Source: a virus (lineage: Duplodnaviria > Heunggongvirae > Uroviricota > Caudoviricetes). Taken from it: DNA of 60,235 nt. Under the pieces are notes generated by a model. That model searched no databases and had not been told where the DNA came from. It saw only the letters and a list, made by a program, of their open reading frames with translations. Below are positions 4,527 to 18,179 of this stretch, piece after piece. Made by a program: the position numbers and the translations under genes. The stretch lies in IMG/VR virus record IMGVR_UViG_3300045007_000064, positions 1 to 60,235 of that record; one strand, 5' to 3'. Each line of letters begins with the position of its first letter. Position 1 is the stretch's first letter.

Positions 4527-4550
4527 CACGCAAGAGGAACAGGGGTAAAC
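4527..4550 (+). promoter_or_regulatory. degenerate copy of the 24-bp intergenic motif
   Basis: CACGCAAGAGGAACAGGGGTAAAC. Confidence 0.5.
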
Positions 4551-4582
4551 GAAAAAGAGACCCGGGTTCCCCGGGCCTCCTT
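4551..4582 (-). terminator. intrinsic terminator
   Basis: GGAGGCCCGGG-GAAC-CCGGGTCTCT-TTTT on the minus strand. Confidence 0.8.
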
Positions 4583-4732
4583 TCAGCGGTGGCGCACGTC
4601 GTGAATGCCCTCGTGGTTGACGTCCAGCTTGCACTTTCCGTCCTGCCCGGGCGAAGCCATGGCGAAGTCGAAGTCCGTCTTCAAGACCTGGACGCCGCAG
4701 CGCTCCGGCTCGGTGGGGTTCTGGCTGTTCAT
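4583..4732 (-). CDS. small hypothetical protein (cassette gene; C..C..H..H)
   Basis: RBS AAGGGAGAGGAACCC; promoter TTGCAT-16-TATACT. Confidence 0.75.
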   Translation of the reverse strand: MNSQNPTEPERCGVQVLKTDFDFAMASPGQDGKCKLDVNHEGIHDVRHR

Positions 4733-4790
4733 CAGGGTTCCTCTCCCTTGTTGGTAGTTCCAGTATACCCTAATTGACCAGGAATGCAAA

Positions 4791-4818
4791 GAAAAAGCCC
4801 CGTTTCCGGGGCGATTTC
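4791..4818 (-). terminator. intrinsic terminator
   Basis: GCCCCG-GAAA-CGGGGC-TTTTT. Confidence 0.85.
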
Positions 4819-5025
4819 TTAGGCGACTGTCCAGGTGCCTCGGTCGGAGGACCAGACGACGACGTGATCCGGGTTGAGGCCCATGTCCTCAAGTTCCGTT
4901 TCCAATTCGAAGATTCGGGCGGATGCACGCTCTTCCGTCTCGACGGTCGCGTCCTCGTCCTGAAGGATGTTCTTCCAGCCCGCGAGGTTGTCCGCGATTT
5001 CGCGCTGCTCTTCGGTAAGTTCCAT
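4819..5025 (-). CDS. small acidic hypothetical protein (cassette gene)
   Basis: RBS GGGAGAGGAACCC; promoter TTGCGC-17-TAAACT. Confidence 0.8.
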   Translation of the reverse strand: MELTEEQREIADNLAGWKNILQDEDATVETEERASARIFELETELEDMGLNPDHVVVWSSDRGTWTVA

Positions 5026-5089
5026 GATCCGGGTTCCTCTCCCTTTGTGATGTCTCTAGTTTACCCAAAGACAATCGAAAGCGCAAGCC

Positions 5090-5176
5090 TCAAACGAAAA
5101 AGACGCTGAGGCCGATCAGGGTTCCCAGGAACCATCCGATAGCGCTGGTCAGGAACCGATACAGATTGTCCGACAT
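5090..5176 (-). CDS. 28-aa hydrophobic peptide MSDNLYRFLTSAIGWFLGTLIGLSVFFV
   Basis: GGGAG RBS right after the upstream stop; too short for the ORF track. Confidence 0.6.
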   Translation of the reverse strand: MSDNLYRFLTSAIGWFLGTLIGLSVFFV

Positions 5177-5178
5177 GA

Positions 5179-5355
5179 TTACTCCCAGTCTCCGAAGTCC
5201 AGCGCGGCCTGCTCGACCGGCTTGCGATTGGCGGCACGCTTAGCGCGCTCATTGGCGGCGATCATGTCCTCACTCTCCCACACCTTAGCGATAGCCTGCT
5301 CAGCCATCCCAAAGCGCCGGAGCGATTCGGTCATTTCCTCGCGGTTGTTTGCCAT
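5179..5355 (-). CDS. 58-aa hypothetical protein (MANNREEMTESL...)
   Basis: leaderless promoter TTGACT-17-TATGAT-6-ATG. Confidence 0.75.
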   Translation of the reverse strand: MANNREEMTESLRRFGMAEQAIAKVWESEDMIAANERAKRAANRKPVEQAALDFGDWE

Positions 5356-5395
5356 ACCTCCATCATACGGGTAATCCGGGATTCAGTCAAGAAAA

Positions 5396-5419
5396 GTTTA
5401 GTGGTCCGACTCTTGCGCG
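5396..5419 (-). promoter_or_regulatory. 24-bp intergenic motif
   Basis: CGCGCAAGAGTCGGACCACTAAAC. Confidence 0.8.
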
Positions 5420-5432
5420 CCGCCAGGGCCGA

Positions 5433-5460
5433 GAAAAGCCCCGGGCGAGCCGGGGCGATT
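5433..5460 (-). terminator. intrinsic terminator
   Basis: GCCCCGG stem followed by TTTTCT. Confidence 0.8.
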
Positions 5461-5461
5461 C

Positions 5462-5674
5462 TCAGATGATGACCTCTTCCATCGTCTTTGTGATGTGTCG
5501 GGTGATGCTCCGACCATTGACGAAGTAGATTTCGCCGGGGAGCCACAGAATAGCCTCACCGTCGTTGGTGCGGGAGACCGTGGCCTCGCTCAGATCGTCC
5601 TGAATCCAGTCCTGGCTCAGCAGACGATCCAGCGTCAGCTCAGTCTGCTCGACCTGCTCATGCGTGTTGGCCAT
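5462..5674 (-). CDS. hypothetical protein (cassette gene)
   Basis: RBS AAGGGAGAGGAACCCGAA; promoter TTGACG-17-TAAGCT. Confidence 0.8.
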   Translation of the reverse strand: MANTHEQVEQTELTLDRLLSQDWIQDDLSEATVSRTNDGEAILWLPGEIYFVNGRSITRHITKTMEEVII

Positions 5675-5707
5675 TTCGGGTTCCTCTCCCTTGGTGATAC
5701 CTACAGC

Positions 5708-6109
5708 TTACACCGCCAGGGGCTTCGCGTCAAACCCGATCCGGAAATCCACGGGGACAACCGGGGCCGTGCGGCAGAAGCGCACGCGAACGGTCGCTTC
5801 CTTCATCAACTCGCTCAGCAGGCGTACCACGTCCGGGATCGTGTTGTCGTGGTCCTGGATCACGGCGGAACCGAACTCCCGGGAGGGCTTGATAGGAACG
5901 TCCACCGCGACCGGCTCGAAGTGCGGGAACGTCGGCACCTGAATGTGCGCGATCCCGGGCTGACCGTCCTGCGTCACGTAGACGAATCCGGCCTTGCGAT
6001 TCCCGTGGAGGCGCGTGGGGACGTGAACGGTCATCCCAGCCTTGACAGCGGCGACAGCGTAGTCACGGATGAACTCGCTTACAGCGTCAGCGGTGACAGT
6101 CTCAGACAT
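5708..6109 (-). CDS. hypothetical protein (cassette gene)
   Basis: same RBS; promoter TTGCAT-17-TAAACT. Confidence 0.8.
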   Translation of the reverse strand: MSETVTADAVSEFIRDYAVAAVKAGMTVHVPTRLHGNRKAGFVYVTQDGQPGIAHIQVPTFPHFEPVAVDVPIKPSREFGSAVIQDHDNTIPDVVRLLSELMKEATVRVRFCRTAPVVPVDFRIGFDAKPLAV

Positions 6110-6257
6110 TTCGGGTTCCTCTCCCTTTGTTGTCTCTAGTTTAGCCTATGTAGGCTCAGGATGCAAGGTATGCGATGTACTGTGCGCCCAGGAACCAGAA
6201 AGCCCCGATGGTGACGACAGTCCAGAAAGCGCGGCGGAAGTTCTTCATGATTACAGT

Positions 6258-6428
6258 TTACGGGTGTCCCTGTTCCCTGTCAAGTGCGGCCTTCTCCTCG
6301 ACCGCCCGCAGCACGTTCATCACGTACGCGCGTTGTTCGTTCTGCTCAACGAAAGTGTTGAGCCGCTTCAGCCCCACGAAAACGAGGGCGATGAATGCCA
6401 GTACCGCGAGACCGATGACGATTTCCAT
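6258..6428 (-). CDS. 56-aa membrane protein (MEIVIGLAVLAFIALVFVGLKR...)
   Basis: leaderless TTGACA-18-TAGAAT-6-ATG; N-terminal TM helix. Confidence 0.75.
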   Translation of the reverse strand: MEIVIGLAVLAFIALVFVGLKRLNTFVEQNEQRAYVMNVLRAVEEKAALDREQGHP

Positions 6429-6444
6429 GTCATCATTCTACAAT

Positions 6445-6552
6445 AGAAAAAACCCCGGTGTCAACCAGAAGAGGATTTAGGTTGACACCGGGGGTACTGC
6501 ACTTCCGTTTAGTTTCACCTTGAGGGGCGTTCACAGGCGTTTCCCTGGGTGT
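6445..6552 (-). ncRNA. candidate small RNA (~105 nt) ending in a 14-bp terminator hairpin
   Basis: promoter TTGCGT(6588-83)-18-TAAGAT(6564-59); perfect stem 6453-66/6480-93 followed by a U tract; no ORF ends before the terminator. Confidence 0.45.
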
Positions 6553-6629
6553 AGCTCTATCTTAGCACACGGCTCGGGGAGAACGCAAGCGTGAATGCGG
6601 CGAGCGCGAGCAGCGCAAGAGTCAGGACA

Positions 6630-7082
6630 CTAAACCGCATGATCCTCGTGCCAGTCCTGCACGACTGTCACGTTAGGATCACCCTCGAACAGCTCCGCGA
6701 ACTGGCCGCGGGTGAGGACGCCGGTAGGCTCATATCCTCGGCTCTCCTGGTACTGGGCAACAGCACGCTCAGTCAGCACCTCGTAAGCTCCGCCAGGCGC
6801 GCTCGCGGCCTCAGCGAAACCCTCAGCCATGAGGCGACGCTGAATGTGGAGGACGGTCAGAGACTTGCGATTCTCATTGCGTCCAGGCTTGCGAGCCTTG
6901 GAGTAGTGAACGGGGTCCGTCTCGCCTGCGCCAACCACGGAATCACGCGCGATCTTAGCCGGGGCAGGTTTGGCTCCCGCAGACTTCGCGCTTGTCTGCT
7001 TCGGCTCCTTCGGCGCAGGGGAGACAGGTTCGGTGTCGGAGGCCTTGGCGTCCGAAAGCTTGGGGGTCTTGTCATCACTCAT
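6630..7082 (-). CDS. peptidoglycan-binding domain protein with a low-complexity N-terminus
   Basis: VLHIQRRLMAEG...TERAVAQYQESRGYEPTG matches the PG_binding_1 pattern; leaderless. Confidence 0.75.
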   Translation of the reverse strand: MSDDKTPKLSDAKASDTEPVSPAPKEPKQTSAKSAGAKPAPAKIARDSVVGAGETDPVHYSKARKPGRNENRKSLTVLHIQRRLMAEGFAEAASAPGGAYEVLTERAVAQYQESRGYEPTGVLTRGQFAELFEGDPNVTVVQDWHEDHAV

Positions 7083-7099
7083 GACACCATTCTACAACA

Positions 7100-7130
7100 G
7101 AAAAGCCCCGGCGACTTTGCCGGGGTCTTT
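7100..7130 (-). terminator. intrinsic terminator
   Basis: ACCCCGGC/GCCGGGGC stem followed by TTTTCT. Confidence 0.8.
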
Positions 7131-7131
7131 C

Positions 7132-7419
7132 TCAGTGAACGGCGATGAACCCGAACTCTCCCAGGTCGTGCGGCTCGTAATGATCGCCGCAGCGCTCGGA
7201 CGGGTTACCAGTCCAGCCGGTCCCATCGCAGCAGTCGAGACGACCGCACGTGTGCCGCGCGTTGGCGTTGTCCTCACAGCCCGCGCACTCATCGCGCGAG
7301 ACGGAGATAACGCCTTCGCCCTTGCACGTGTCACAGGTGCGCGTGGAGAGGTAACCGGCGTCGGTCGTGTAGGTGACGCGGCCCATGCGTCCGCAGGTGG
7401 GGCAGGAGATGATGTCCAT
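7132..7419 (-). CDS. Cys-rich zinc-finger protein (DnaJ-type CxxCxGxG)
   Basis: CPTCGRMG, CDTCKGEG; leaderless TTGACA-17-TAGACT-6-ATG. Confidence 0.75.
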   Translation of the reverse strand: MDIISCPTCGRMGRVTYTTDAGYLSTRTCDTCKGEGVISVSRDECAGCEDNANARHTCGRLDCCDGTGWTGNPSERCGDHYEPHDLGEFGFIAVH

Positions 7420-7450
7420 GACTTCAGTCTACGCTAGCCGGTCGATAGTG

Positions 7451-7639
7451 TCAAGTTCTATGACTGAACACAGCCGACACAATGGCAGTCTGAGTGAGGA
7501 TGATGGCGAGGACCCACAGCAGCGGCTCGATCACACTCAGGGCGATGAGCACGGCGAGCACGAGAGCAGCGACCAGCAGCACGATAGCGATGACCGCGTA
7601 CCACTCAATCTCTCGGATCACCTTCCAAAAGCGTTCCAT
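7451..7639 (-). CDS. small membrane protein
   Basis: long hydrophobic stretch; GGAGGAGG RBS. Confidence 0.75.
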   Translation of the reverse strand: MERFWKVIREIEWYAVIAIVLLVAALVLAVLIALSVIEPLLWVLAIILTQTAIVSAVFSHRT

Positions 7640-7641
7640 GT

Positions 7642-7824
7642 TTAGTCCTCCTCCTCTTGCGTGGGTGGGCTTTGCACGACAACTGAGGCCGTGTTAGCCT
7701 TCACGATGATTTCCTGAGTCACAATGTCCTCAGCCTCGTCCCTGCGGCTGGACGCCCAAAGTAGGGCGAACATGACCCCAAGGATGATGAACGCCCCAAT
7801 TCCCACGATGAGGGCTAGTTCCAT
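7642..7824 (-). CDS. small membrane protein
   Basis: N-terminal TM helix; leaderless TAGACT-6-ATG. Confidence 0.75.
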   Translation of the reverse strand: MELALIVGIGAFIILGVMFALLWASSRRDEAEDIVTQEIIVKANTASVVVQSPPTQEEED

Positions 7825-7840
7825 GACTCTAGTCTAGCAC

Positions 7841-7928
7841 AGAAAGGGCCGCGCTGACAAACAGAGAGAGGGAAGGGAGCCAGCGCGGCCCGACGCGGGG
7901 TGGCGGGCCAGATAGGCACCTCCCGCGT
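7841..7928 (-). ncRNA. candidate two-hairpin sRNA with a 20-nt anti-Shine-Dalgarno loop
   Basis: promoter TTGCGC(7963-58)-17-TAAGCT(7940-35); stem 1 ACGCGGG/CCCGCGU; stem 2 is 13 bp with a G.U that forms only on this strand; loop UCCCUUCCCUCUCUCUGUUU; U tract; no ORF. Confidence 0.7.
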
Positions 7929-7946
7929 ACTTACAGCTTACACGAC

Positions 7947-7975
7947 GAAGGCCCCGGGCGCAAACCCGGGGCCTC
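7947..7975 (-). terminator. terminator whose loop region contains the -35 box of the sRNA promoter
   Basis: GGCCCCGGG-TTTGCG-CCCGGGGCC. Confidence 0.8.
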
Positions 7976-7984
7976 GCGTGCCTG

Positions 7985-8386
7985 CTACCAGGCCGTGATC
8001 GTGACGACGGGGGTGACCGCCTGCCGGGGCGACTGGAACTTGTCGTACAGCTCGGCGTGCGCCAGGCGGACGCCCACCGCCAAGTCGCGCAGCGTGTCGG
8101 CGTTGGCCTCCGACAGCCCTGCCGTCTCGCCGTCCTCGTCCACGTTGCCGGTGAAGATGACGGGGCCGTACACCTTCGCGCCCATGAGCGCCACGACGAG
8201 GTTGACGGAATCGAACTCCTCGCCCTCGGCGTAGAGGAACTCTTCGTTGTGGTAGGACGCGAGGTCCTCCGACCAGTAGATCGGCTCGATCATGCCGCCG
8301 ACCGCGTGGCGGAGGACGGGGTACGACTCGCCCTCGACCGTCAACTCTTCGATGGTGCCGTTCGGGTTGACCTTGATGAAAAGCAT
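7985..8386 (-). CDS. DUF3846-like protein
   Basis: LRHAVGGMIEPI...YHNEEF; RBS AACAGAGAGAAAGGGAAG. Confidence 0.7.
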   Translation of the reverse strand: MLFIKVNPNGTIEELTVEGESYPVLRHAVGGMIEPIYWSEDLASYHNEEFLYAEGEEFDSVNLVVALMGAKVYGPVIFTGNVDEDGETAGLSEANADTLRDLAVGVRLAHAELYDKFQSPRQAVTPVVTITAW

Positions 8387-8432
8387 GTGCTTCCCTTTCT
8401 CTCTGTTGATACCAGTATAGACTATTCCGGGT

Positions 8433-8464
8433 AAAAAGAAAAGCCCCGATTTCTCGGGGCGATT
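8433..8464 (-). terminator. intrinsic terminator
   Basis: GCCCCGA-GAAA-TCGGGGC followed by TTTTCTTTTT. Confidence 0.85.
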
Positions 8465-8468
8465 CTTA

Positions 8469-8657
8469 TCAGACCGTCTCGTCTGCGAACTCGGAGGGGT
8501 CCCAGTCCTCGTCCTCCCAGAGTTCCTCCTGATCCTCGTCTGTCCAGGGTCGAACCTCTTCGGCCTCGTACCCGTCGTATAGCTGAGCCACTATCGCACG
8601 AGCGTGCGCCTCGTCCCGCGCCGTGATGAAATGTCCGTCAACCCAGAAGTCTCGCAT
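8469..8657 (-). CDS. small acidic hypothetical protein
   Basis: 18-nt RBS identical to that of 7985..8386; promoter TTGCAT-17-TATGCT. Confidence 0.8.
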   Translation of the reverse strand: MRDFWVDGHFITARDEAHARAIVAQLYDGYEAEEVRPWTDEDQEELWEDEDWDPSEFADETV

Positions 8658-8736
8658 GAGCTTCCCTTTCTCTCTGTTAGCACCAGCATACACCTATCAG
8701 GTATGCGATGCAAGCTTTCTGTGCTACACTGGACGC

Positions 8737-8925
8737 ATGAGCAAAAAGCATGAGCCGGATGCCGGATTCCGCATCCGCCAGGAACTCCGCAAGGGGAGCC
8801 GTACCAGCCCCCACGACACCAGGCCCAACCGCCAGCGTTCCCGCCAGGATGCAAAGCGAGCCGCGATCCGTGATTCGGATCGCGGTTTTTCTTTGCCCGG
8901 ATGCACGCAAGAGTACGCCCACTAA
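8737..8925 (+). CDS. 62-aa basic protein (MSKKHEPDAGFRIRQELRKGSRTSPH...KRAAIRDS); the only rightward gene in the cassette region
   Basis: leaderless TACACT(8725-30)-6-ATG. Confidence 0.7.
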   Translation: MSKKHEPDAGFRIRQELRKGSRTSPHDTRPNRQRSRQDAKRAAIRDSDRGFSLPGCTQEYAH

Positions 8926-8927
8926 AG
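8904..8927 (+). promoter_or_regulatory. 24-bp intergenic motif
   Basis: CACGCAAGAGTACGCCCACTAAAG. Confidence 0.8.
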
Positions 8928-8937
8928 CCCGAAGGCC

Positions 8938-9147
8938 TTAGTGCCCCTCGGGGTGGTATGCACTGTCGCAGTAGCACGGGGTCTTCCTGACCGGAGCCGA
9001 AGCCGGAGCGGGGTTGAGGTACGCGCTCGACACGTACGTGATATCAGCGAGCGAGTCCACAACGTGCGCGAGCGCGTCCGCCGCGTCGGCCTCACTCATG
9101 GGAGCGTCGGACGTGTCGATCTGGATGGTGATGGTTGCAGTACGCAT
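8938..9147 (-). CDS. hypothetical protein (cassette gene; C-terminal CxC..H..H)
   Basis: RBS AAGGGAGAGGAACCCGAA. Confidence 0.8.
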   Translation of the reverse strand: MRTATITIQIDTSDAPMSEADAADALAHVVDSLADITYVSSAYLNPAPASAPVRKTPCYCDSAYHPEGH

Positions 9148-9205
9148 TTCGGGTTCCTCTCCCTTGTGTTGATATCAGTCTACCCTATGCGGGCGATTGT
9201 GTCAA

Positions 9206-9550
9206 CTAGTACCCCAGCCACGCGTACAGCATGGCGGCGTCCAGGTACTCCGGGAGCGTGTCCCCATCGATGATCTTGTCCCCCAGGCCGTCGATCAGCT
9301 CGGAGACAGTGAACCCGTGGGCGTCGAGAATCTTCTCCACCCGCCACGTCGGGAGCATCCGGCCCACGCGCGTGACCAGGTTGGTGTACTCCGGCGAGCG
9401 CCCCCAGTACATCTCATCGTACCCGTCCGCCTGAGCCTGAGCCGCATCGCTGAGCCTGCCCACCCGCACCTCTTCGCGGGCACCGCTCTGGTGATACGCG
9501 GTGGCGGCGAGGGCAAGCGCCCGACTGGTGGCCTCTTGGTTGCTGTTCAT
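9206..9550 (-). CDS. hypothetical protein
   Basis: leaderless TTGACA-18-TAGGAT-6-ATG. Confidence 0.8.
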   Translation of the reverse strand: MNSNQEATSRALALAATAYHQSGAREEVRVGRLSDAAQAQADGYDEMYWGRSPEYTNLVTRVGRMLPTWRVEKILDAHGFTVSELIDGLGDKIIDGDTLPEYLDAAMLYAWLGY

Positions 9551-9567
9551 ATCTATATCCTACAACA

Positions 9568-9604
9568 GAAAAGCCCCGACTGTCAAGTGACAATCGGGGC
9601 GATT
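9568..9604 (-). terminator. terminator containing the downstream -35 box
   Basis: GCCCCGA stem followed by TTTTCT; TTGACA at 9586-81. Confidence 0.8.
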
Positions 9605-9613
9605 CCGGCGAGG

Positions 9614-9970
9614 TCAGGCGTCGATCAGCTCGGCGGCCTCCGACTTCTCGGCGTTGCTCTTCCGCGTCTCCGCGGCGGCCTTCGCGCGGCGGCGGCGGGC
9701 GAGGTAGTGCCCGTACTCGTCCAGGAGCGCCTGCGAGTAGCGACCGCGGGAGCCGACCGTGATCCCCTTCGCGGCGAGCTTGTCGGCGTTGGCACGCGCC
9801 CACGCGCGGATGTCGGACTCCTGCTGCTCCGCGACCTGGACGCGGACGTTGCCGATGGTCAGGTCCGCACCGGGGGTGATCGCGTCGGCGTCGAGCTTGG
9901 CGGCGAGCGAGCGCAGGTGCTTGGCGAGGTCGGCGTTGGACGTGTGCTTGATGTTGACGGTGGTACGCAT
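9614..9970 (-). CDS. Lsr2-like DNA-binding domain protein
   Basis: IRAWARAN...ITVGSRGRYSQALLDEY resembles the Lsr2 C-terminal RGR AT-hook domain; RBS AAAGGAAA. Confidence 0.75.
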   Translation of the reverse strand: MRTTVNIKHTSNADLAKHLRSLAAKLDADAITPGADLTIGNVRVQVAEQQESDIRAWARANADKLAAKGITVGSRGRYSQALLDEYGHYLARRRRAKAAAETRKSNAEKSEAAELIDA

Positions 9971-10098
9971 TGGTTTCCTTTGTTCGAAGTGATGGACTCT
10001 CTGTCCCTGTAGTAAATACATTACCCCATTCCGAAGGATTGTGTCAAGTCGATCTAAGAAAATCTTTCTTGATTCCGGAAGGCCCGAACCGCTCACGT

Positions 10099-10122
10099 CA
10101 CGCAAGAGTCCGCCCACTAAAC
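10099..10122 (+). promoter_or_regulatory. 24-bp intergenic motif
   Basis: CACGCAAGAGTCCGCCCACTAAAC. Confidence 0.85.
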
Positions 10123-10148
10123 GGAAAAGCCGGGATTTCTCCCGGCTT
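10123..10148 (-). terminator. intrinsic terminator
   Basis: GCCGGGA-GAAA-TCCCGGC followed by TTTT. Confidence 0.8.
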
Positions 10149-10153
10149 CCCGC

Positions 10154-10369
10154 TCAGACCAGCGCGCGACCCTCGCGGCTCATGTCCCACCACGAGAACA
10201 ACCCACCGCGGCTGTTCCGCTTGACTGCCGCCGTGATCGCGGCGTGGTCGTCCCCGTAGCGATCCGTCAACATGTCATGGTCGGAGGGCGAGACGTTGTA
10301 CTTCCGGTACGCCGCACGCTGCGCGTAGGTCAGTTCCCCGTAGGACTCGTCGTAAACCATCTTAGGCAT
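10154..10369 (-). CDS. hypothetical protein (cassette gene)
   Basis: RBS GGGAAAGGGAGG; promoter TTGCGT-17-TATACT. Confidence 0.8.
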   Translation of the reverse strand: MPKMVYDESYGELTYAQRAAYRKYNVSPSDHDMLTDRYGDDHAAITAAVKRNSRGGLFSWWDMSREGRALV

Positions 10370-10408
10370 TGGTGCCTCCCTTTCCCTTTGTTACTTACAG
10401 TATACGGC

Positions 10409-10443
10409 AAAAACGCCCTAGACGCAATGTCTAGGGCGCTTTT
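10409..10443. terminator. terminator with the -35 box in its loop region
   Basis: CGCCCTAGAC/GTCTAGGGCG stem with flanking A and T runs. Confidence 0.8.
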
Positions 10444-10451
10444 GGTTTCGG

Positions 10452-10658
10452 CTAGGGGAGAATCTCCCAGTCCCACTCGTCGTAATCGACGGCCACGGAC
10501 GTGAGCGTGTTGTCGAGGTCGAGGGCCACATAGGACTCATCCCCGATGAACGTCTCATCCCGGACGATCCCGACCAGAACGGACGGCGGCACGCCCTCGG
10601 CGCGCTTGCCGTAGTTGTCCTTGGCGGTGGCCTTGACGTGCTTTCCGATGTTGCTCAT
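10452..10658 (-). CDS. hypothetical protein (cassette gene)
   Basis: RBS GGGAAAGGGAGA. Confidence 0.8.
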   Translation of the reverse strand: MSNIGKHVKATAKDNYGKRAEGVPPSVLVGIVRDETFIGDESYVALDLDNTLTSVAVDYDEWDWEILP

Positions 10659-10733
10659 GGTTTCTCCCTTTCCCTGGAGTTATTACTATGAGCATACAAC
10701 AAAAACGCCCCGGATACAACCGGGGCGAGTTTG

Positions 10734-10826
10734 TTAGAGCATCGGCTCGCGGTGGGGGTTGTCCCTCCCCATCTGCGAGAGCATGAGCGCGAGGGTGATA
10801 ACCCCGGCGATGAGTGCGGCGATCAC
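10734..10826 (-). CDS. 30-aa membrane peptide MIAALIAGVITLALMLSQMGRDNPHREPML
   Basis: GTGA overlap with the upstream stop; followed by a terminator at 10700-10730. Confidence 0.55.
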   Translation of the reverse strand: MIAALIAGVITLALMLSQMGRDNPHREPML

Positions 10827-11200: not shown

Positions 11201-11302
11201 GAGAATCCTCATTCTCTAGTGGGAGTCCCCTTGTGGTGTGTCCCTGTACCTATAGCTTAGGGCATGTTCCCGCTAGTGTCAAGTCCCCCGCTCCCGGAGT
11301 CG

Positions 11303-11326
11303 AACGTAAGCATAATGGCACTAAAC
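11303..11326 (+). promoter_or_regulatory. 24-bp intergenic motif
   Basis: AACGTAAGCATAATGGCACTAAAC. Confidence 0.8.
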
Positions 11327-11678: not shown

Positions 11679-11777
11679 GATGTTCTCATTTCTCTTTTGA
11701 GTTACCAGGGCCGGTGTTTCCGACTAAGAACAATATACCAGGGTTCCAGGCATTGTGTCAACTTAAATACGAGAAAG

Positions 11778-11801
11778 ATTTAGTGCCTATATGCTTACGT
11801 G
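11778..11801 (-). promoter_or_regulatory. 24-bp intergenic motif
   Basis: CACGTAAGCATATAGGCACTAAAT. Confidence 0.8.
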
Positions 11802-11815
11802 TCCCCCGGAGGGGG

Positions 11816-12037
11816 TCACTCGAAAATGACCTTGCCCTTGGCCACCGCTTGCCTCCACTCGGCAGTGCCAGGGTCTAGTACCTCGCCCGTACGCGTGTTG
11901 ATTAGGGCTTCCGGCGCGTGTCCCGCGTCCGCTTGCGCGATGAGCGCGGCGCGATTGACCTTATTCAGGCGCATGCCACGGCCTATCAGTACGCCGACCA
12001 CGACGCACACGATGCCGAAAGCGATGAGCACAACCAT
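11816..12037 (-). CDS. small membrane protein
   Basis: N-terminal TM helix; leaderless TAAGCT-6-ATG. Confidence 0.75.
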   Translation of the reverse strand: MVVLIAFGIVCVVVGVLIGRGMRLNKVNRAALIAQADAGHAPEALINTRTGEVLDPGTAEWRQAVAKGKVIFE

Positions 12038-12055
12038 ATGTCTAGCTTACCAGAC

Positions 12056-12670
12056 TTAGGCGAGGTCGGCAACGTTGTACGAGTCGAACGCGCCCGCTCC
12101 CCAGTAGCGCCGCCGCCACACGACCCACGTCACGGCCTGCACGACCGCGGGGGACAGCGGCATGCCGTACTCACGCGAGAGGATGACGGACGCGCGGCGA
12201 TACTTGTCCGCGATTTCGTCATAGCGCTTGCGCGACAGCTTAGGCACATCGTTGGTCACCGAACGATCGTTGTGTGCCAGGCAGTACGCGTGCCTGTCAA
12301 TCGTCACGCCCTCCGCGCCGCCCGTAATGATGCTCAGGTAGAAGTTGTTGACCTTGAGACCGCCGAGCGCGTCGATAGTGCCCTCCGCAATGATCCGGCG
12401 AGCTTTCGCGAGGTTCGCACTGAGGTAGCCGGAGTCGAGGGTCCCACCGGACGCGAACATGCGCGCCGCGAGGTTGACGTTGTTCCCCCAGGAGTTGAGG
12501 GGAGACAGCGCGGCGAGCACACCGGCAGTCACGTGCACCGGGAGCGAGTGCTTAGCGGCGAACGCCTCAGCGATGAGACGAGCGTCCGCGTACCACGCGA
12601 TACCCTCAGCGATGAGGTCGGCGTCCGCAGAGCGGAAGACTGCCGTGATGTTGCGAGTGTGAAGAGCCAT
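12056..12670 (-). CDS. conserved phage protein, possible HhH-GPD glycosylase-like fold
   Basis: AALSP..W..N, LGGLKVNNF, VTIDRHA, VQAVTWVVWR; RBS GGGAAAGGGA; promoter TTGCAT-17-TAAGCT. Confidence 0.7.
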   Translation of the reverse strand: MALHTRNITAVFRSADADLIAEGIAWYADARLIAEAFAAKHSLPVHVTAGVLAALSPLNSWGNNVNLAARMFASGGTLDSGYLSANLAKARRIIAEGTIDALGGLKVNNFYLSIITGGAEGVTIDRHAYCLAHNDRSVTNDVPKLSRKRYDEIADKYRRASVILSREYGMPLSPAVVQAVTWVVWRRRYWGAGAFDSYNVADLA

Positions 12671-12780
12671 TGTGGATTCCCTTTCCCTTGGTGGCTGATA
12701 TCTACAGCTTACACCATGACGGGGGAGGATGCAAACCCTAATCCGAAACTAGTTCAAACCCGTATCCGCAATGCTCGTAC

Positions 12781-12804
12781 GTTTAGTGGCTAGACTCTTA
12801 CGTG
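12781..12804 (-). promoter_or_regulatory. 24-bp intergenic motif
   Basis: CACGTAAGAGTCTAGCCACTAAAC. Confidence 0.85.
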
Positions 12805-12849
12805 CTCCGGGCAGCAGAAAAGGCGACCCGCGTAGGGCCGCCCTTTCTG

Positions 12850-13182
12850 TCACGCGAACGGGTTGTAGATTGCTCCGGGATTTCCGCTGATCCGGCGAAG
12901 TTCCGCTTCGCGCTCGCGTGCGACCCGCGCGAAGTTCTCCCCGTACAGCTCTCGCTCCGGCTCTCCCGCGGCGATGTTGCGCTGAAGCTCCCGACGTGCG
13001 TTGTAGAGTGCTCCACTCATGACCCCGCCGATCACGTTGACCAGCGTGTGAGCCTCAGCGACCACGCGCCGCCTGTACTCGAACGGAACCTGAATAAGTT
13101 CCTTCGCCTGCGCGGGATGAATCCCGACACCGTATCCGCCCGCGTCGATGCTGGCCTGAAGTTCTGCGTCCGTATATTCCAT
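12850..13182 (-). CDS. hypothetical protein (cassette gene)
   Basis: RBS GGGAAAGGGAG; terminator at 12816-12848. Confidence 0.8.
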   Translation of the reverse strand: MEYTDAELQASIDAGGYGVGIHPAQAKELIQVPFEYRRRVVAEAHTLVNVIGGVMSGALYNARRELQRNIAAGEPERELYGENFARVAREREAELRRISGNPGAIYNPFA

Positions 13183-13268
13183 GATGCTCCCTTTCCCGGA
13201 GGTTGTATGTCCAGCATACACCATAGACACAGAAAAAGCGACCCGCATTACGCGGGCCGCTCATTCTG

Positions 13269-13676
13269 TCAGTCGTCCAGCCCCGTGAGGGTCGTCTCCC
13301 GACCGAAGGTCTCGAAGTACAGCTCCCGGGCGCGAACCCACTCGTCGGGGTCGTCCCACTCGCCATCGGACTCGATGCGGAAGTCCGGGGACTCCTCCCG
13401 GATGCGCAGGAGCGCGGCGCACACCACCACGTCATACGGCTCCCGGCCCGTCTTGCAGAAGTCCGAACCGCCCGACGCCGAGACCGAGAACGTCTCGTAG
13501 TCCTCGCCGTCCGCAGCCCAGCCGTTGAAACGGACCTCATCCGGCGTGAGGATCGGCTTGCCCTCACCGAGTCCATCCCCGATCTTGACGGCGGACCCCT
13601 CGATGATCTTGGCGATGTCCTCGATGACTTCGTTGCTCAGGATGGGCGTGCCCTCCCAATAGTGCGAGTATCCCAC
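13269..13676 (-). CDS. conserved phage hypothetical protein (MGYxHYW...FNG...FCKT.R.PYD)
   Basis: RBS GGAAAGGGAG; terminator at 13232-13262. Confidence 0.8.
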   Translation of the reverse strand: MGYSHYWEGTPILSNEVIEDIAKIIEGSAVKIGDGLGEGKPILTPDEVRFNGWAADGEDYETFSVSASGGSDFCKTGREPYDVVVCAALLRIREESPDFRIESDGEWDDPDEWVRARELYFETFGRETTLTGLDD

Positions 13677-13737
13677 GATGTTCTCCCTTTCCGGAGGTTG
13701 TTTGTTGATTACAGCTTACAGGAATGACAGCGAAGTG

Positions 13738-14112
13738 TCAAGCCTGCCGCTCGACGGCGAGAACTTCCACGGCCTCGAACCGGGCCTCCGAATCGGCATC
13801 CGTGGACGGGACGAACCAGCCCGCGCGGGTGCCGCGTGACTTGACGACACCGCTGCGCCCATCCACGAGGGTGATCTTGTCCCCCGCAGCGATGGTCAGG
13901 TGCCGCGCCATGATCCGCGCGTGCTCCCGGTGCAGCTCGGCGGTGTCGTAGTCCAGCCGATCCTGCGCGTTGTTGCGCTCGGTGCGGAGGTCCAGGTACT
14001 CATTCCCGGAAGCGGCACCACCGCTCTCCAGGTACTCCGTCATGGCCGACAGGGCGTCACTCACGCGCGCCTCCGACTCAGCGACCCTGATCCGCAGTTC
14101 TGCGTAGCTCAT
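13738..14112 (-). CDS. hypothetical protein (coiled coil plus SH3-like tail)
   Basis: RBS GGAAAGGGAAG. Confidence 0.8.
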   Translation of the reverse strand: MSYAELRIRVAESEARVSDALSAMTEYLESGGAASGNEYLDLRTERNNAQDRLDYDTAELHREHARIMARHLTIAAGDKITLVDGRSGVVKSRGTRAGWFVPSTDADSEARFEAVEVLAVERQA

Positions 14113-14188
14113 GTCTTCCCTTTCCGTGTGGCTGATATGGCCAGCTTACCACACATCGGAGCTAATGGGAAGTACCCTGCGCATCGGA

Positions 14189-14212
14189 GTTTAGTGCCAG
14201 TATGCTTACGTG
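14189..14212 (-). promoter_or_regulatory. 24-bp intergenic motif
   Basis: CACGTAAGCATACTGGCACTAAAC. Confidence 0.85.
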
Positions 14213-14221
14213 ATCGGCACA

Positions 14222-14414
14222 GCCAAGTGCCCCGGGCGTCCGTGTCAGAGACTTCCCGGGGCTGAATGGGACACCCACGCGCTCCGGCGTGGCATTCCTT
14301 GGTGACGTTTTTGCTACTCGCATGTGCACTGCGTTTTCGGGGCCGTCTCCCCCACACCCCAGTCCGAAGACTGGACGCACTAGGCCTAAGTGGTTTATCC
14401 TCCCCTAGTGGAGT
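14222..14414 (-). ncRNA. candidate structured ncRNA (~190 nt)
   Basis: promoter TTGCGG-17-TAAGCT (14449-14421); CACUAGG/CCUAGUG stem, C(UUCG)G hairpin 14359-74, GGGG/CCCC and CCACGC/GCGUGG stems, terminal GCCCCGGG stem. Confidence 0.6.
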
Positions 14415-14432
14415 ACTTACAGCTTACCGCAC

Positions 14433-14831
14433 TTAGGCCGAAACCGCAAGGGCGAAATCGAGGGCGTCCGAAGCGAACGCCTCCCGGGCGGCAGCATCCC
14501 CGAGGACGTAATCGTCCTCAAATCGGGAGGGGAACTCATCCGCGAAGTCGGAGAGTGCCACGGCAGGATCGAGGTCGTCCAGGCGACCGTGAACGGCGGC
14601 GAAGATGAGCCGGTACGCGCGGGGCTTGATGACCTCGAACAGTCCTTCGGACTCGTCGGGGCGGATCAGCCGCACCGCGTTGCAGATCAACTCGCACATG
14701 CCACGCATGTACTCGTCGTAATCCGGCTCCGGGAGGTCGGTCTCACCCGCCCAACCCTCGGCGGCGGCTTGGATGATGAGCTTGCCGCACGGGTCGAATG
14801 CGTGGACAAACTTGACCTTGGTAACGCTCAT
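14433..14831 (-). CDS. acidic hypothetical protein
   Basis: RBS GGGAAAGGGAG; TAAGCT promoter. Confidence 0.8.
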   Translation of the reverse strand: MSVTKVKFVHAFDPCGKLIIQAAAEGWAGETDLPEPDYDEYMRGMCELICNAVRLIRPDESEGLFEVIKPRAYRLIFAAVHGRLDDLDPAVALSDFADEFPSRFEDDYVLGDAAAREAFASDALDFALAVSA

Positions 14832-14891
14832 GATGCTCCCTTTCCCAAAGCTCTGTTGTTACCTACAGCTTACAGCACCCGAACCGCATTG

Positions 14892-15197
14892 TCAATGCAA
14901 GTCCTCGTACAGCCCGGCCACCTTCCGCAGCGCGAGCTTGGCATCCTCCACACGCTGATACTGCGAGGCGTACGGGTAGGCCTCCGTCCGGAGGTCGGTG
15001 TACGCCGCGTCGAGTTCCGCCATAGCGGCATCGAACTTGGCGGCATCGACCTTCGGGCCGACCGGCACGCCGTGGTCGCTCGCGTACTCCAGGATCGCGT
15101 ACTCATCGAAGTCGTCGTAGTCCTCGAACTCCACGATGACCGAATTGGTCAGGTCGGTGATCGAACCATCACCCGTGTTGACAACGTAAGTGCTCAT
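14892..15197 (-). CDS. acidic hypothetical protein
   Basis: RBS GAAAGGGAAA; TTGACA-17-TAAGCT. Confidence 0.8.
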   Translation of the reverse strand: MSTYVVNTGDGSITDLTNSVIVEFEDYDDFDEYAILEYASDHGVPVGPKVDAAKFDAAMAELDAAYTDLRTEAYPYASQYQRVEDAKLALRKVAGLYEDLH

Positions 15198-15226
15198 GAG
15201 ATTTCCCTTTCTCGAATACCTACAGC

Positions 15227-15418
15227 TTACCGCACGTCGGCAGGCTTGTCAACTGGCCACATGAACTCGTGCGCGTTGTCCGGGGTGATGCCGAACAGGT
15301 TGAGCATGTCAGCGGTGTTGTCCTCGGCGGGGCGCTCCGAAGCGACCGCACCCGCCATGACGGCGCAGAAAGCCGCACCGACCGCACAGGCGATGATCCC
15401 CAGGGTGATGATGTCCAT
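15227..15418 (-). CDS. small membrane protein
   Basis: N-terminal TM helix; starts 2 nt after the upstream stop. Confidence 0.7.
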   Translation of the reverse strand: MDIITLGIIACAVGAAFCAVMAGAVASERPAEDNTADMLNLFGITPDNAHEFMWPVDKPADVR

Positions 15419-15420
15419 GC

Positions 15421-15837
15421 TCAGGCCCCGTAGTCGAGACGGATGCCGCCGCCCAGGATGCCGACCGCACGCCCGAACTCTGGGAGGGCCGCCGCGGCCT
15501 CCCCGGCGAAGCACACGGCATCGAACTCCTCGAACGGCGAGTCACCCCAGCTCATGCCGCCGAAGGTCAGGAAGTACAGGGCATCGTTGCCGGGAATCTC
15601 CCACGACGCGACATACGGGTCTCCGAGGCGGGAGTCGTCGATGAACTTGACGCCCTCCACGATGGAAGCGATGAGGTCGTCCACGGCGGTCTCTTCGTCC
15701 TCGAAGAATCCTGCCGCGTCGATGTCATCGAGCTTCGCGGCGATCTGGTCACGGAAAGACTCCACAACCGCGCGAACGTCCTCGATGCTCTTGCTCTTCT
15801 CGGCAGTCAGTCCGCCGCCGATGTATGATGCGCCCAT
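15421..15837 (-). CDS. acidic hypothetical protein
   Basis: RBS GAAAGGGAGG. Confidence 0.8.
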   Translation of the reverse strand: MGASYIGGGLTAEKSKSIEDVRAVVESFRDQIAAKLDDIDAAGFFEDEETAVDDLIASIVEGVKFIDDSRLGDPYVASWEIPGNDALYFLTFGGMSWGDSPFEEFDAVCFAGEAAAALPEFGRAVGILGGGIRLDYGA

Positions 15838-15946
15838 TTGGGGCCTCCCTTTCTCTCTTACGCCTAGCTTACACCGCATCCGCATCAGAGTCAAATGCAC
15901 CTTACCGGCATATCCTCCGAACATGCGCGTATCGGGCATACGGCAT

Positions 15947-15970
15947 CACGCAAGAGGACTGGCACTAAAC
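15947..15970 (+). promoter_or_regulatory. 24-bp intergenic motif
   Basis: CACGCAAGAGGACTGGCACTAAAC. Confidence 0.85.
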
Positions 15971-16081
15971 AAAGAGGGGCCGGATTTCTCCGACCCCTCA
16001 CTAGGATTATTTTTCAACTAAATTTAGGTAAGATGGGTGGGTACCCACTAGGGCGGCGCGCGTGTCATGTCCGCATCCTGC

Positions 16082-16336
16082 CTAGTCGATGAACCGCTCG
16101 CGAACGCGCTGCGGCCCGTACTCGATCCACCAGGCCAGCGTGTGCGACTCGCCGGGGACCGCTTCGTGGTCCTCCCACGCCTCATCGGCATCGTCACCGC
16201 GCGACAGGTGCCACCACGGCGCGATGTTGTCGGGGTCGTCCTCGTACGAGGAATTGACCTCCACGAAAAGCGGGCACGGCTCCCCGTCTTCGTTGTGACC
16301 GGCGCAGAGGATGTAATCCGGCTCTTTGAGTGACAT
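16082..16336 (-). CDS. hypothetical protein (C..H..C...H)
   Basis: RBS CAGGGAAAGGGA; TTGACA-17-TAAGGT. Confidence 0.8.
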   Translation of the reverse strand: MSLKEPDYILCAGHNEDGEPCPLFVEVNSSYEDDPDNIAPWWHLSRGDDADEAWEDHEAVPGESHTLAWWIEYGPQRVRERFID

Positions 16337-16368
16337 GTGATTCCCTTTCCCTGGAATGTACTACCACC

Positions 16369-16848
16369 TTACCGCACGTTGGCCAGCGTGTCAACCTTGC
16401 GGTACGTGATGACGTGCGCGGGGTTGTACTTGGTCGGGTCGCACTTGTAGCAGGACCGATTGTTGCGCGGCTTGCGCCAGAATCGGTAGGTGGACACGTG
16501 ACCCGCGGGGCACGTTCCGACCCACGGCGCGGCTTCCGCTCGCAGGTTCGGCGCGTCGGTGGTGGCGGCGGTGGGGTTGGCTCCCAGCCGCAGGGCGATG
16601 ATCTTCCACGCGCGTCCGTGTCCCGCGGTGGGACCGGCAAGTGCGTGTGCAACCTCGTGACGAATGGTGTCCATCACCTGTTCGGCGGTACTCGCCTTGG
16701 TCATCGGACGCGAGAGCGTGATCGTCTTGTCCCGGTAGTTGCACGATCCCAGACGCTGAACGGCATTGTCCCAGCGGAACTTCCACTCCAGCGGCAGGTT
16801 TGCGGCCATGACTCCCAGCGCCATGACGCGGGCCTCTTCAAGATTCAT
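16369..16848 (-). CDS. SprT-like zinc metalloprotease
   Basis: LGSC...ITLS...IRHEVAHAL...GHGRAWK and a C-terminal C..H/CxxC finger; RBS GAGGGAAGGGAACCC. Confidence 0.85.
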   Translation of the reverse strand: MNLEEARVMALGVMAANLPLEWKFRWDNAVQRLGSCNYRDKTITLSRPMTKASTAEQVMDTIRHEVAHALAGPTAGHGRAWKIIALRLGANPTAATTDAPNLRAEAAPWVGTCPAGHVSTYRFWRKPRNNRSCYKCDPTKYNPAHVITYRKVDTLANVR

Positions 16849-16912
16849 CGGGTTCCCTTCCCTCGTGTGATACCAGCATACCCTATCCGCACCGCATCTG
16901 CAAGCTGGAATC

Positions 16913-16936
16913 CGCGCAAGAGTCCTGCCACTAAAC
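16913..16936 (+). promoter_or_regulatory. 24-bp intergenic motif
   Basis: CGCGCAAGAGTCCTGCCACTAAAC. Confidence 0.85.
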
Positions 16937-16940
16937 GGAG

Positions 16941-16992
16941 AAACCCCCGGAGCGCGCGGGGGAAAGGGGAAAGGGAGGCGCGCCCCGGGGGT
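16941..16992 (-). terminator. 15-bp hairpin with a 20-nt anti-SD loop CUCCCUUUCCCCUUUCCCCC
   Basis: stem 16978-92/16943-57 with one G.U on the minus strand, just after the stop of 17006..17353. Confidence 0.75.
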
Positions 16993-17005
16993 GGTTTGTG
17001 TGCGC

Positions 17006-17353
17006 TTAGCGCTGGAAGTCGAGGTCGTAGATTTCGACCTCGCGGGCGTTCTCGACCAGGCGCAGGATCGCGGCCCAGTTGGTCTTGCCCTTCTGACCGG
17101 TGACGTACCAGTTCTCGCCTGTCTCGCGCGGGTTCTCGGTCCGCATCGCGAGGTACTGATACGTGGTCCGCCCGCTGCCGGGGAACTTGGCCTCGATGAG
17201 GACCTTACTGCCGGGTTCCGGCTCATCGTACTTCGATGCTGAAGCCTCGGCCTCAGCGATCCGGGCGAGGACCAGCTCACGCTCGGCGGCGAGACGGTCG
17301 GCTTCAGCGCGCAGCTCAGCCGCGCGGCTCTTGGTGGATCGGATGCTTGCCAT
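17006..17353 (-). CDS. hypothetical protein
   Basis: leaderless TTGACA-18-TAGGAT-6-ATG. Confidence 0.8.
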   Translation of the reverse strand: MASIRSTKSRAAELRAEADRLAAERELVLARIAEAEASASKYDEPEPGSKVLIEAKFPGSGRTTYQYLAMRTENPRETGENWYVTGQKGKTNWAAILRLVENAREVEIYDLDFQR

Positions 17354-17362
17354 GATGTAATC

Positions 17363-17590
17363 CTACTCTCTCGGCGGGCTGGTTGTCAAGCCCGCTCGCC
17401 ACGATTTCCGGTAGAAATCGCGCGGTTCGTTGTGGTTCGGGTAATCCTCGCTCGCGAGCAGAGAATCCAGGTAGTAGATACCGGCATCGGTAAGCCACTC
17501 CCCATCGATGAGCGGTACGTCCTCTTCGGCATGCCGGATGTCCCCGATCACGCCCGCTTTGAGCGCGACCAGGGGCACCTCATCCGGCAT
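17363..17590 (-). CDS. hypothetical protein
   Basis: TGATG coupling with the upstream gene. Confidence 0.7.
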   Translation of the reverse strand: MPDEVPLVALKAGVIGDIRHAEEDVPLIDGEWLTDAGIYYLDSLLASEDYPNHNEPRDFYRKSWRAGLTTSPPRE

Positions 17591-17916
17591 CACTGGCTCA
17601 GGTCCGTCCAGTCGCGGCGGTAGCCGATCCGGAACCGACTCTGCCAGCGCTCCATCGGCTCGCCCTTGACGATGTAGGTGCCGTCCTTGCGGAGCGTGAT
17701 CGTCTTGATGGGACCGTCCGGGTCCGGCTCGTACGTCTTCTCGCCGTCGTCACCCCAGGCGTGCCCCGGCGTGACCACGGTCACCTTGTCGGCCTGCACG
17801 TCCAGCTCGCGCCCGTTGCGGCGCACGGCGATGACCGTGTACGCGCGGTGCAGTCCACCGAGCGCGGTGGAGTAGGTGGCACCCGTGCCGACCTCGATCT
17901 GAGTTTCAGTGTCCAT
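17590..17916 (-). CDS. hypothetical protein
   Basis: RBS CAGGGAAAGGGAG; TTGCAA-17-TAAGCT. Confidence 0.8.
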   Translation of the reverse strand: MDTETQIEVGTGATYSTALGGLHRAYTVIAVRRNGRELDVQADKVTVVTPGHAWGDDGEKTYEPDPDGPIKTITLRKDGTYIVKGEPMERWQSRFRIGYRRDWTDLSQ

Positions 17917-17949
17917 CTGTCTCCCTTTCCCTGGAGTGTTGACTACAGC

Positions 17950-18111
17950 TTACCGCATTGCCTCGCGATTTGCAAGCATGCGTTGCTTGACCTGCGCGTC
18001 AGTCGGCGCAGTCCATCCATGGAACCCCACCGCACGATGCCACAGGATCGAGTGCTCGTGCTTGCCCGCGCCGCACCAGGTGCAGCCATACGGGTTGAGG
18101 TAGACGTTCAT
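17950..18111 (-). CDS. 53-aa CxxC...H protein
   Basis: leaderless TTGACA-17-TACACT-6-ATG. Confidence 0.75.
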   Translation of the reverse strand: MNVYLNPYGCTWCGAGKHEHSILWHRAVGFHGWTAPTDAQVKQRMLANREAMR

Positions 18112-18155
18112 GACTCCAGTGTACGGCATCCGCATCCGCATGTCAAATCGGACCG

Positions 18156-18179
18156 CACGCAAGAGTCCGGGCACTAAAC
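18156..18179 (+). promoter_or_regulatory. 24-bp intergenic motif
   Basis: CACGCAAGAGTCCGGGCACTAAAC. Confidence 0.85.

Follow-up and report, generated by a model that had tools for sequence, protein, structure and literature searches.

A 24-bp bipartite element confined to the terminal repeat of Microbacterium siphoviruses: a putative operator set of pre-early genes

What is the role of a short asymmetric sequence that recurs between the small genes of one part of a phage genome and is absent from the rest? We address this question for a 24-bp element in a DNA stretch of 60,235 nucleotides—the window—which covers positions 1 to 60,235 of the IMG/VR record IMGVR_UViG_3300045007_000064. The record is a contig of a large Microbacterium siphovirus whose kin are the phages Zooman, Big4, and A3Wally and, more distantly, Pumpernickel and Cece. 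The original prediction, made from the sequence of the window, listed eleven copies of the element and proposed either an operator, activator, or stoperator-like site or a recombination site for cassette exchange. We describe the 24-mer as a real element that is specific to the long direct terminal repeat (DTR) of these phages, and put the probability at about 50% that it forms a multi-copy operator set, i.e., the binding site of a phage-encoded regulator of the pre-early genes. A literature search found neither a published account of the motif nor a paper on these phages.

A search of the whole window with the originally proposed consensus at up to three mismatches gives 12 matches, where 0.01 are expected by chance and none of the 100 shuffles used as background reaches 12. 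These are ten of the eleven copies listed before plus two that had been missed, at 6612–6635 (+) and 7640–7663 (−). The eleventh, at 4527–4550, bears four mismatches and was picked up by a scan with a weight matrix built from 51 motif copies; its orthologs in Zooman (15747) and Big4 (16336) are better preserved, and it is, by its sequence, a real if degenerate copy. All eleven copies hence stand, and the total is 13. Over the 171,128 bp of the complete genome, the weight matrix finds 13 matches even at a threshold of only 8 bits, and each of them lies within 4.5–18.2 kb. The earlier statement that none lies beyond 18.2 kb thus extends to the entire genome, and the motif is far from equally frequent elsewhere—13 copies in the repeat counterpart described below and none in the 153 kb outside 3.2–21.1 kb. 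The element consists of a left box, CACGYAAGMRT, a free spacer of 5 bp, and a right box, CACTAAAC. As had been claimed, both orientations occur: relative to the leftward genes, eight window copies read GTTTAGTG..CGTG with transcription and five read CACG..AAAC, and this reverse/forward split of 8/5 compares with 10/4, 11/4, and 9/4 in the relatives, so that most copies point against the genes. Neighboring copies follow each other at roughly even distances of about 1–1.4 kb.

The region that carries these copies is best understood from the relatives with complete ends.

3232..21072, no strand: counterpart of the long DTR, present as a single copy in the collapsed metagenomic contig; both boundaries by homology

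In Zooman, 14 copies at 1,204–16,844 recur as an identical 14 at 176,855–192,495, which is an offset of 175,651 bp, and gene 1 recurs as gene 314 at this same offset. Every motif copy of Big4 and A3Wally is likewise duplicated at the other genome end with a constant offset. Therefore, these phages have DTRs, of 17,079 bp in Zooman, 17,669 bp in Big4, and 15,503 bp in A3Wally, and the motif is found only inside them, with 11–15 copies per repeat. For the window, we infer that the interval from 3,232 to 21,072 is the DTR counterpart, whose approximate boundaries derive from homology: the inner DTR ends of Zooman (17,079) and A3Wally (15,503) both map near window position 3,232, Zooman position 1 maps to about 21,072, and window 22.8–24 kb matches Zooman 171.0–172.0 kb near the right end of the unique region of that phage. 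The original prediction spoke of an early cassette region; the confinement itself held, and what had been overlooked is the key context that this region corresponds to a long terminal repeat.

The repeat counterpart contains about 40 small leftward genes and one small antisense open reading frame (ORF), and it bears the densest clusters of sigma-A-type promoters and intrinsic terminators of the genome, with 24 promoter-like sites in its 17.8 kb versus 68 in the other 153 kb. Those 68 promoter-like sites and 28 terminator-like sites outside the repeat are all without the motif. Neither an RNA polymerase nor a sigma factor is annotated anywhere in Zooman and, therefore, the host polymerase is probably used throughout; an integrase or repressor is not annotated in Zooman either. 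This organization resembles the first-step-transfer region of T5 and BF23, where a siphovirus likewise carries a long terminal repeat of small genes with host sigma-70-type promoters and without a phage RNA polymerase (PMC10644984, PMC7472727). Of these traits, the long direct repeat at both ends is seen in Zooman, Big4, and A3Wally and deduced for the window, and small genes under sigma-70-type promoters without a phage polymerase are found as well. The likeness is one of architecture—gene homology to T5 was neither found nor sought—and for T5 itself, no report of a repeated cis-element specific to one gene class was found.

Conserved ends around a variable core had been noted from the start, and the comparison of orthologs between clades bears this out: the left box is 90% and the right box 81% identical, the spacer only 54%, and the flanks 35–49%. 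In addition, some bases changed across a whole lineage. Position 24 is C in 11 of 13 window copies, 12 of 13 copies of the IMG/VR contig L019, and 11 of 13 copies of A3Wally, and it is G in 11 of 14 copies of Zooman and 11 of 15 of Big4; position 10 is A in 7 of the 13 A3Wally copies and in A3Wally alone. Since the spacers stay distinct among copies, whole-motif copying does not explain these lineage-wide changes, which a trans-acting reader that co-evolves with its sites would account for. One and the same host strain served for the isolation of A3Wally, Zooman, and Big4. When 596 Gb of bacterial genomes were scanned, 12 scattered single matches came up, roughly the number estimated for chance, and among 185,579 bacterial species genomes the motif is essentially absent, with one lone match in one Microbacterium genome. 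The shared host strain and the chance-level occurrence in bacteria together argue that the reader is probably phage-encoded.

The placement of the copies follows a common order. In gene direction, a stop codon is followed by a GC-rich hairpin with a T-run (often TTTTCTnTGCCC), 0–5 bases, and the motif in either orientation; then come 5–77 bases, a TTGACA-17/18-TAnnnT promoter, the ribosome-binding site GGGAAAGGGA, and the start codon. Hereby, the hairpin and promoter-spacer sequences vary from junction to junction. The 13 window copies are as follows.

4527..4550, plus strand: degenerate copy (CACGCAAGAGGAACAGGGGTAAAC), 8 nt after a terminator and upstream of the promoter of a gene for a protein with two helix-turn-helix (HTH) modules
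5396..5419, minus strand: copy in forward orientation relative to the genes, separated by 18 nt from the preceding hairpin and by 5 nt from the TTGACT-17-TATGAT that follows
6612..6635, plus strand: copy missed originally; its GTTTAG provides the TAG stop of the gene 6630–7082, with a promoter 23 nt downstream
7640..7663, minus strand: atypical copy missed originally (CACGCAAGAGGAGGAGGACTAAAC), spanning the stop codon and ribosome-binding site between two membrane-protein genes
8904..8927, plus strand: copy between convergent units, the gene 8938–9147 (−) and the small ORF 8750–8941 (+), with a terminator at 8858–8888
10099..10122, plus strand: copy with gaps of 6 nt to the terminator before it and 51 nt to the TTGACA after it, the latter in the promoter of the Lsr2-like gene
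11303..11326, plus strand: copy of the GTAAGCAT subtype, separated by 12 nt from the preceding terminator and by 20 nt from the TTGACA-17-TAAGCT that follows
11778..11801, minus strand: copy of the GTAAGCAT subtype that immediately follows a short hairpin, with 16 nt between it and the next promoter, TTGACA-18-TATATT
12781..12804, minus strand: perfect match, separated by 17 nt from the preceding terminator and by 45 nt from the TTTGCA-18-TAAGCT that follows
14189..14212, minus strand: perfect match, after the hairpin that closes a non-coding unit with a Pistol ribozyme match
15947..15970, plus strand: copy 3 nt after the terminator 15974–15999, with the best-scoring promoter 52 nt downstream
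16913..16936, plus strand: copy with gaps of 7 nt to the terminator before it and 9 nt to the promoter of a SprT-like gene (TTGCAG-17-TATGCT) after it
18156..18179, plus strand: perfect match, 9 nt before TTGACA-17-TACACT

Eleven of these 13 lie in a non-coding spacer after a hairpin and T-run and 5–52 bp upstream of a TTGACA-type −35 box, in good agreement with the 5–55 bp given originally, and the predicted terminators and promoters place the motif in a spacer that would be untranscribed. The copies at 6612, 7640, and 8904 depart from the usual order. The first of them has orthologs in Zooman, Big4, A3Wally, and L019. The second, which lies inside an operon of the window, is kept in all five genomes, but coding constraints may be what keeps it, and its role as a site is uncertain. 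The third has an ortholog of opposite orientation in L019. The orthologs of the copy at 16913 lie 20 nt (Zooman) and 19 nt (Big4) from their −35 boxes. Several terminator–promoter junctions within the repeat lack the motif.

The distances to the promoters are not arbitrary. For each copy, the gap to the best-scoring downstream −35 box was taken, orthologs at equal distance were collapsed, and periodicity was assessed by permutation. Copies that read against the genes (n = 27) show a best period of 10.75 bp with an Rbar of 0.53, at p = 0.0012 for periods of 10–11.25 bp and p = 0.0064 for any period of 7–16 bp. Correspondingly, gaps at orthologous sites differ by near-whole turns—9/20, 20/42, 21/43/41/51, and 45/56/67. 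Combined phasing tests that are referenced to the box centres are still significant, but post hoc. Helically phased activator or repressor sites upstream of promoters are known from the class I sites of CRP, the marboxes of MarA/SoxS/Rob, and the p4 sites of phi29, which share with the 24-mer the location upstream of the −35 box and distances that differ by whole helical turns. Marboxes are also asymmetric, have a monomer with two HTH motifs as their reader, and function in either orientation depending on distance. The likeness concerns a possible mode of action and not a family: the sequences are unrelated, and neither an AraC-family nor a CRP-like protein was identified here.

The restriction to the repeat, the footprint of two boxes, the parallel base changes, and the phasing therefore favor the binding site of a phage protein. 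In the proposed mechanism, a sequence-specific DNA-binding protein encoded by the phage itself would read the sites, which would mark the transcription units of the long terminal repeat, i.e., of the DNA expected to be expressed first, as is the pre-early class in T5. Each site would sit between the terminator of one unit and the host-type (sigma-A) promoter of the next, and a protein bound there would act on the RNA polymerase at this downstream promoter from a single helical face. All units of the repeat could thereby be turned on or off together, as one class, and the protein might in addition block read-through from the upstream unit. Protein binding, the phage origin of the protein, and the control of transcription are what we infer from the sequence comparisons.

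Several points weigh against this operator proposal. Phasing is not significant for copies in forward orientation (n = 11); the −35 boxes were called by computation, and orthologs were collapsed partly by hand; and some of the 11-bp differences could stem from slippage of a repeat unit of 11 bp. Only about half of the promoters of the repeat have a copy nearby. The motif is anchored more tightly to the terminator (0–18 nt) than to the promoter (5–77 nt), which a pure regulator of promoters need not be. Finally, the motif is inverted at one orthologous junction in L019 and, hence, its orientation is not critical at that junction.

Multi-copy operators of comparable design are known from other actinobacteriophages. 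The stoperators of cluster A mycobacteriophages are 13–14 bp long and keep one orientation relative to transcription. They are scattered over the phage genome and halt elongation, and their reader is the immunity repressor (of the L5 gp71 type), a monomer whose two DNA-binding domains explain the asymmetry of the site (PMC9283540). The 24-mer shares with them the short, asymmetric, intergenic site in multiple copies. It differs by its 24 bp with a free 5-bp spacer, its restriction to the terminal repeat, its two orientations, and its location in spacers predicted to be untranscribed, and it occurs in an apparently lytic T5-like siphovirus. Of the original proposal of an operator, activator, or stoperator-like site, the bipartite site near promoters thus has indirect support; the stoperator-like part has none, because the site is confined to the terminal repeat and used in both orientations. 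Taken together, the comparison suggests a variant of the multi-copy phage operator theme.

Several features adjoin the motif copies or the ends of the repeat. The Pistol self-cleaving ribozyme match (Rfam RF02679) lies at 14352–14414 (−) of the window and scores 42.2 bits over the full-length model, with a gathering score of 34.5. It is part of a protein-free unit that has its own TAAGCT-type promoter and ends at the hairpin before the copy at 14189. The ORF 8750–8941 (+), the only one of the repeat that opposes all others, encodes a small, very basic protein (MSKKHEPDAGFRIRQELRKG…), has its own promoter, and is conserved in Zooman, Big4, A3Wally, and L019; its terminator 8858–8888 (+) shows compensatory stem changes between phages. 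The inner repeat boundary at about 3,232 falls in a gene-free convergence zone, window 3232–3850, whose counterpart in Zooman and Big4 holds one further motif copy and then a promoter that points out of the repeat. Near the inner part of the terminal repeat, relatives bear DnaA-box-like inverted or tandem repeats between a motif copy and a promoter (Zooman ~15,340–15,380, Big4 ~15,940–15,980, and A3Wally ~13,735–13,775). They consist of TTATCCACAGGCTGTGGATAA with a variable number of 11-bp CTGTGGATAAC units, and recall the DnaA boxes reported in the injection-stop region of T5.

Could the 24-mer instead mark the boundaries of exchangeable cassettes, as the original prediction had also considered? 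It would then serve as a short homology or a recombinase target by which promoter–gene–terminator cassettes are gained, lost, or swapped, as has been proposed for the PeSL elements of T4-like phages. These repeats, too, occur at terminator–promoter junctions among small early genes of a variable region; their conserved part is the terminator stem-loop plus the early promoter, and indel breakpoints map to them (PMC2839356, PMC4122927). The 24-mer differs in being a third element that is neither hairpin nor promoter, and in bordering core rather than variable genes. The repeat is indeed a mosaic: the motif is the exact end point of several blocks of homology between phages, one extra block of the window is bracketed by two copies of the same orientation, and Big4 has an extra unit of gene plus motif. 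Such endings are, however, also expected for any conserved island in diverged spacer DNA, and the copies occupy syntenic positions in all genomes. Core genes have the motif as a neighbor no less often than variable genes do: the shares are 68% and 56% overall, and 84% and 64% (p = 0.016) for genes next to a gap of at least 60 nt. Neighboring copies are often inverted, which would lead to DNA inversion and not to deletion or insertion, the spacers have not been homogenized, and cassette exchange offers no role for the helical phasing to promoters. We hence consider this explanation unlikely. As a separate observation, four compact junctions of the repeat (7083–7131, 8387–8468, 9551–9613, and 10370–10451) are themselves PeSL-like in that the next −35 region overlaps or adjoins the terminator hairpin, and none of the four carries the 24-bp motif.

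If the 24-mer is an operator, which protein reads it? Two DNA-binding candidates are encoded in the repeat itself.

3854..4429, minus strand: gene of the double-HTH protein, 191 aa, last gene of the DTR; Pfam Sigma70_r4 and HTH_23
9614..10117, minus strand: gene of an Lsr2-like DNA-binding protein; Pfam Lsr2_DNA-bd with E = 4e-5, which is below the curated cut-off

The double-HTH protein had been named as the nearest candidate binder, and it would read the site with one HTH per box. Its two HTH modules and flexible Pro-rich linker suit an asymmetric bipartite site, a use of two domains by a monomer for which there is a precedent (PMC9283540); its gene belongs to the repeat, is kept in every motif-bearing phage, and has a motif copy ahead of its promoter, and the relative L112 has a repeat of similar geometry (CACGGAAAA, ~10 nt, TAAAAA). 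The protein is widespread, with more than 1,200 metagenomic homologs of 183–194 aa, and is predicted with confidence by AlphaFold2 (pLDDT of 92.5); a fold search against solved structures gave no significant match. Against a role as reader, the two recognition helices do not vary among 35 homologs with identities as low as 53%, yet the motif is repeated in none of 80 related IMG/VR loci with a gene for the protein—there is one strong single match (L106), and a few others reach 9–11 bits—and several of these loci bear unrelated lineage-specific repeats instead. Likewise, the helices are identical in the proteins of the window and of Big4 though position 24 differs (C versus G), and no conserved site was found upstream of the gene across the family. 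The assignment of this protein as reader is therefore doubtful.

The Lsr2-like protein is the second of these candidates. Its longest ORF overlaps the motif copy at 10099 and, hence, its true start is probably further downstream; in Pumpernickel, gp26 is annotated as an Lsr2-like DNA bridging protein. Outside the repeat, a WhiB-family protein of 187 aa is encoded at genome position 121,552–122,115 (+) (L114 1462–2025). It is longer than typical WhiB-like proteins, and its additional C-terminal domain appears by eye to be a four-cysteine zinc ribbon (CPFC…CESC) without an HTH. The Lsr2-like protein, the WhiB-family factor, and other small proteins encoded in the repeat are candidate readers.

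The element might also act on the level of DNA, with the repeat as a physical unit—in pausing or pulling during stepwise genome entry, in the duplication of the repeat in packaging, in shielding the entering end from nucleases, or as T5-like nick sites. Its strict confinement to the repeat in four complete genomes and the roughly even spacing of ~1–1.4 kb would fit, and both orientations would serve both genome ends. On the other side, the copies avoid coding DNA and track the terminator–promoter spacers precisely, phasing to the −35 box is not expected, and the nicks of T5 and BF23 are spread along the genome, whereas here the repeat alone carries copies. T5-like phages do inject their terminal repeat first and carry site-specific nicks, but those of T5 and BF23 lie on one strand (PMC10644984) and here both strands are used. 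We regard such a role as improbable.

It is less probable still that the phage exploits the binding site of a host protein. Host factors commonly bind upstream of promoters, and the DnaA-box-like repeats described above lie nearby in the relatives. However, the motif is essentially absent from the bacterial species genomes scanned, and it comes in different lineage-specific versions in phages that were isolated on a single host strain. A site of a host regulon was dropped as a candidate, as the genome scan yielded only single matches at chance level. An RNA element is argued against by the two orientations, the position predicted to be untranscribed, and a search of Rfam that found nothing at the motif. 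The least credible explanation is a promoter for a phage-specific RNA polymerase, most copies of which would drive antisense transcripts that silence early genes: the element is asymmetric and conserved over 24 bp, most copies do point against the genes, and its right box CACTAAAG is one that we take to resemble the −7 to +1 core of the T3 promoter, but the genome has no match to PF00940 (T7-type polymerase; a weak negative, as control genomes are also silent), no polymerase or sigma factor is annotated in Zooman, and the spacing of the boxes does not fit sigma-70-family promoters. A sigma-54-like spacing seen in one copy was also dropped, as no polymerase or sigma gene was found and the would-be GG position is variable.

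The operator set proposed here might have equivalents in the wider phage family. The contig L019 bears 13 canonical copies, and Pumpernickel shows the variant GACGCAAGAGAA, followed by ~7 bases and CCTAAT. In distant relatives, different repeats occupy the equivalent position after terminators: CAGAAATTCCAAGTCCC in L033; TTACACGGAAAA, ~10 bases, and TAAAAA in L112, with a geometry like that of the window's motif; and the AT-rich 17-mer GTGTATTTATTTTTTCT in L042, L046, and L051. A lineage-specific repeat after terminators thus looks like a general feature of this phage group. The 17-mer itself follows most terminators in ~16 copies at ~500-bp spacing, nearly all in one orientation and a few bases upstream of −35-like boxes, and looks like an UP-element-type promoter module. 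A second element, CGACACGCCCGGGAT(R)CA, is located ~8–25 nt upstream of the −35 boxes of 3–5 terminal-repeat promoters per genome. Zooman, Big4, A3Wally, L033, L111, and L112 all have it, and it reaches more distant relatives than the 24-mer. It was considered as a conserved target of the double-HTH protein and was discarded, since the window's genome, L019, Pumpernickel, and most of the other loci lack it.

A more specific version of the operator proposal is tentative: one phage factor would read the ~13 phased, repeat-only sites and thereby switch the first-injected gene set as a class, and lineages would re-tune the pair of protein and site. Such re-tuning would explain both the C/G switch at position 24 and the unrelated repeats of distant relatives.

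In phages of the T5 type, all gene classes are transcribed by the host RNA polymerase, and the switching between classes is unexplained (PMC7472727). If the operator proposal is true, the 24-mer would constitute a cis-code by which T5-like phages that rely on host RNA polymerase alone mark their pre-early class, and an element that stands next to terminal-repeat promoters only would offer a handle on class switching in culturable and harmless Microbacterium phages. The 24-mer could be used as bait for its reader, and the C/G difference between Zooman and Big4 on the one side and A3Wally on the other could serve as a specificity test on the same host. The different repeats at the same position in distant relatives suggest that this is a general and fast-evolving feature of an abundant, mostly metagenomic phage group.

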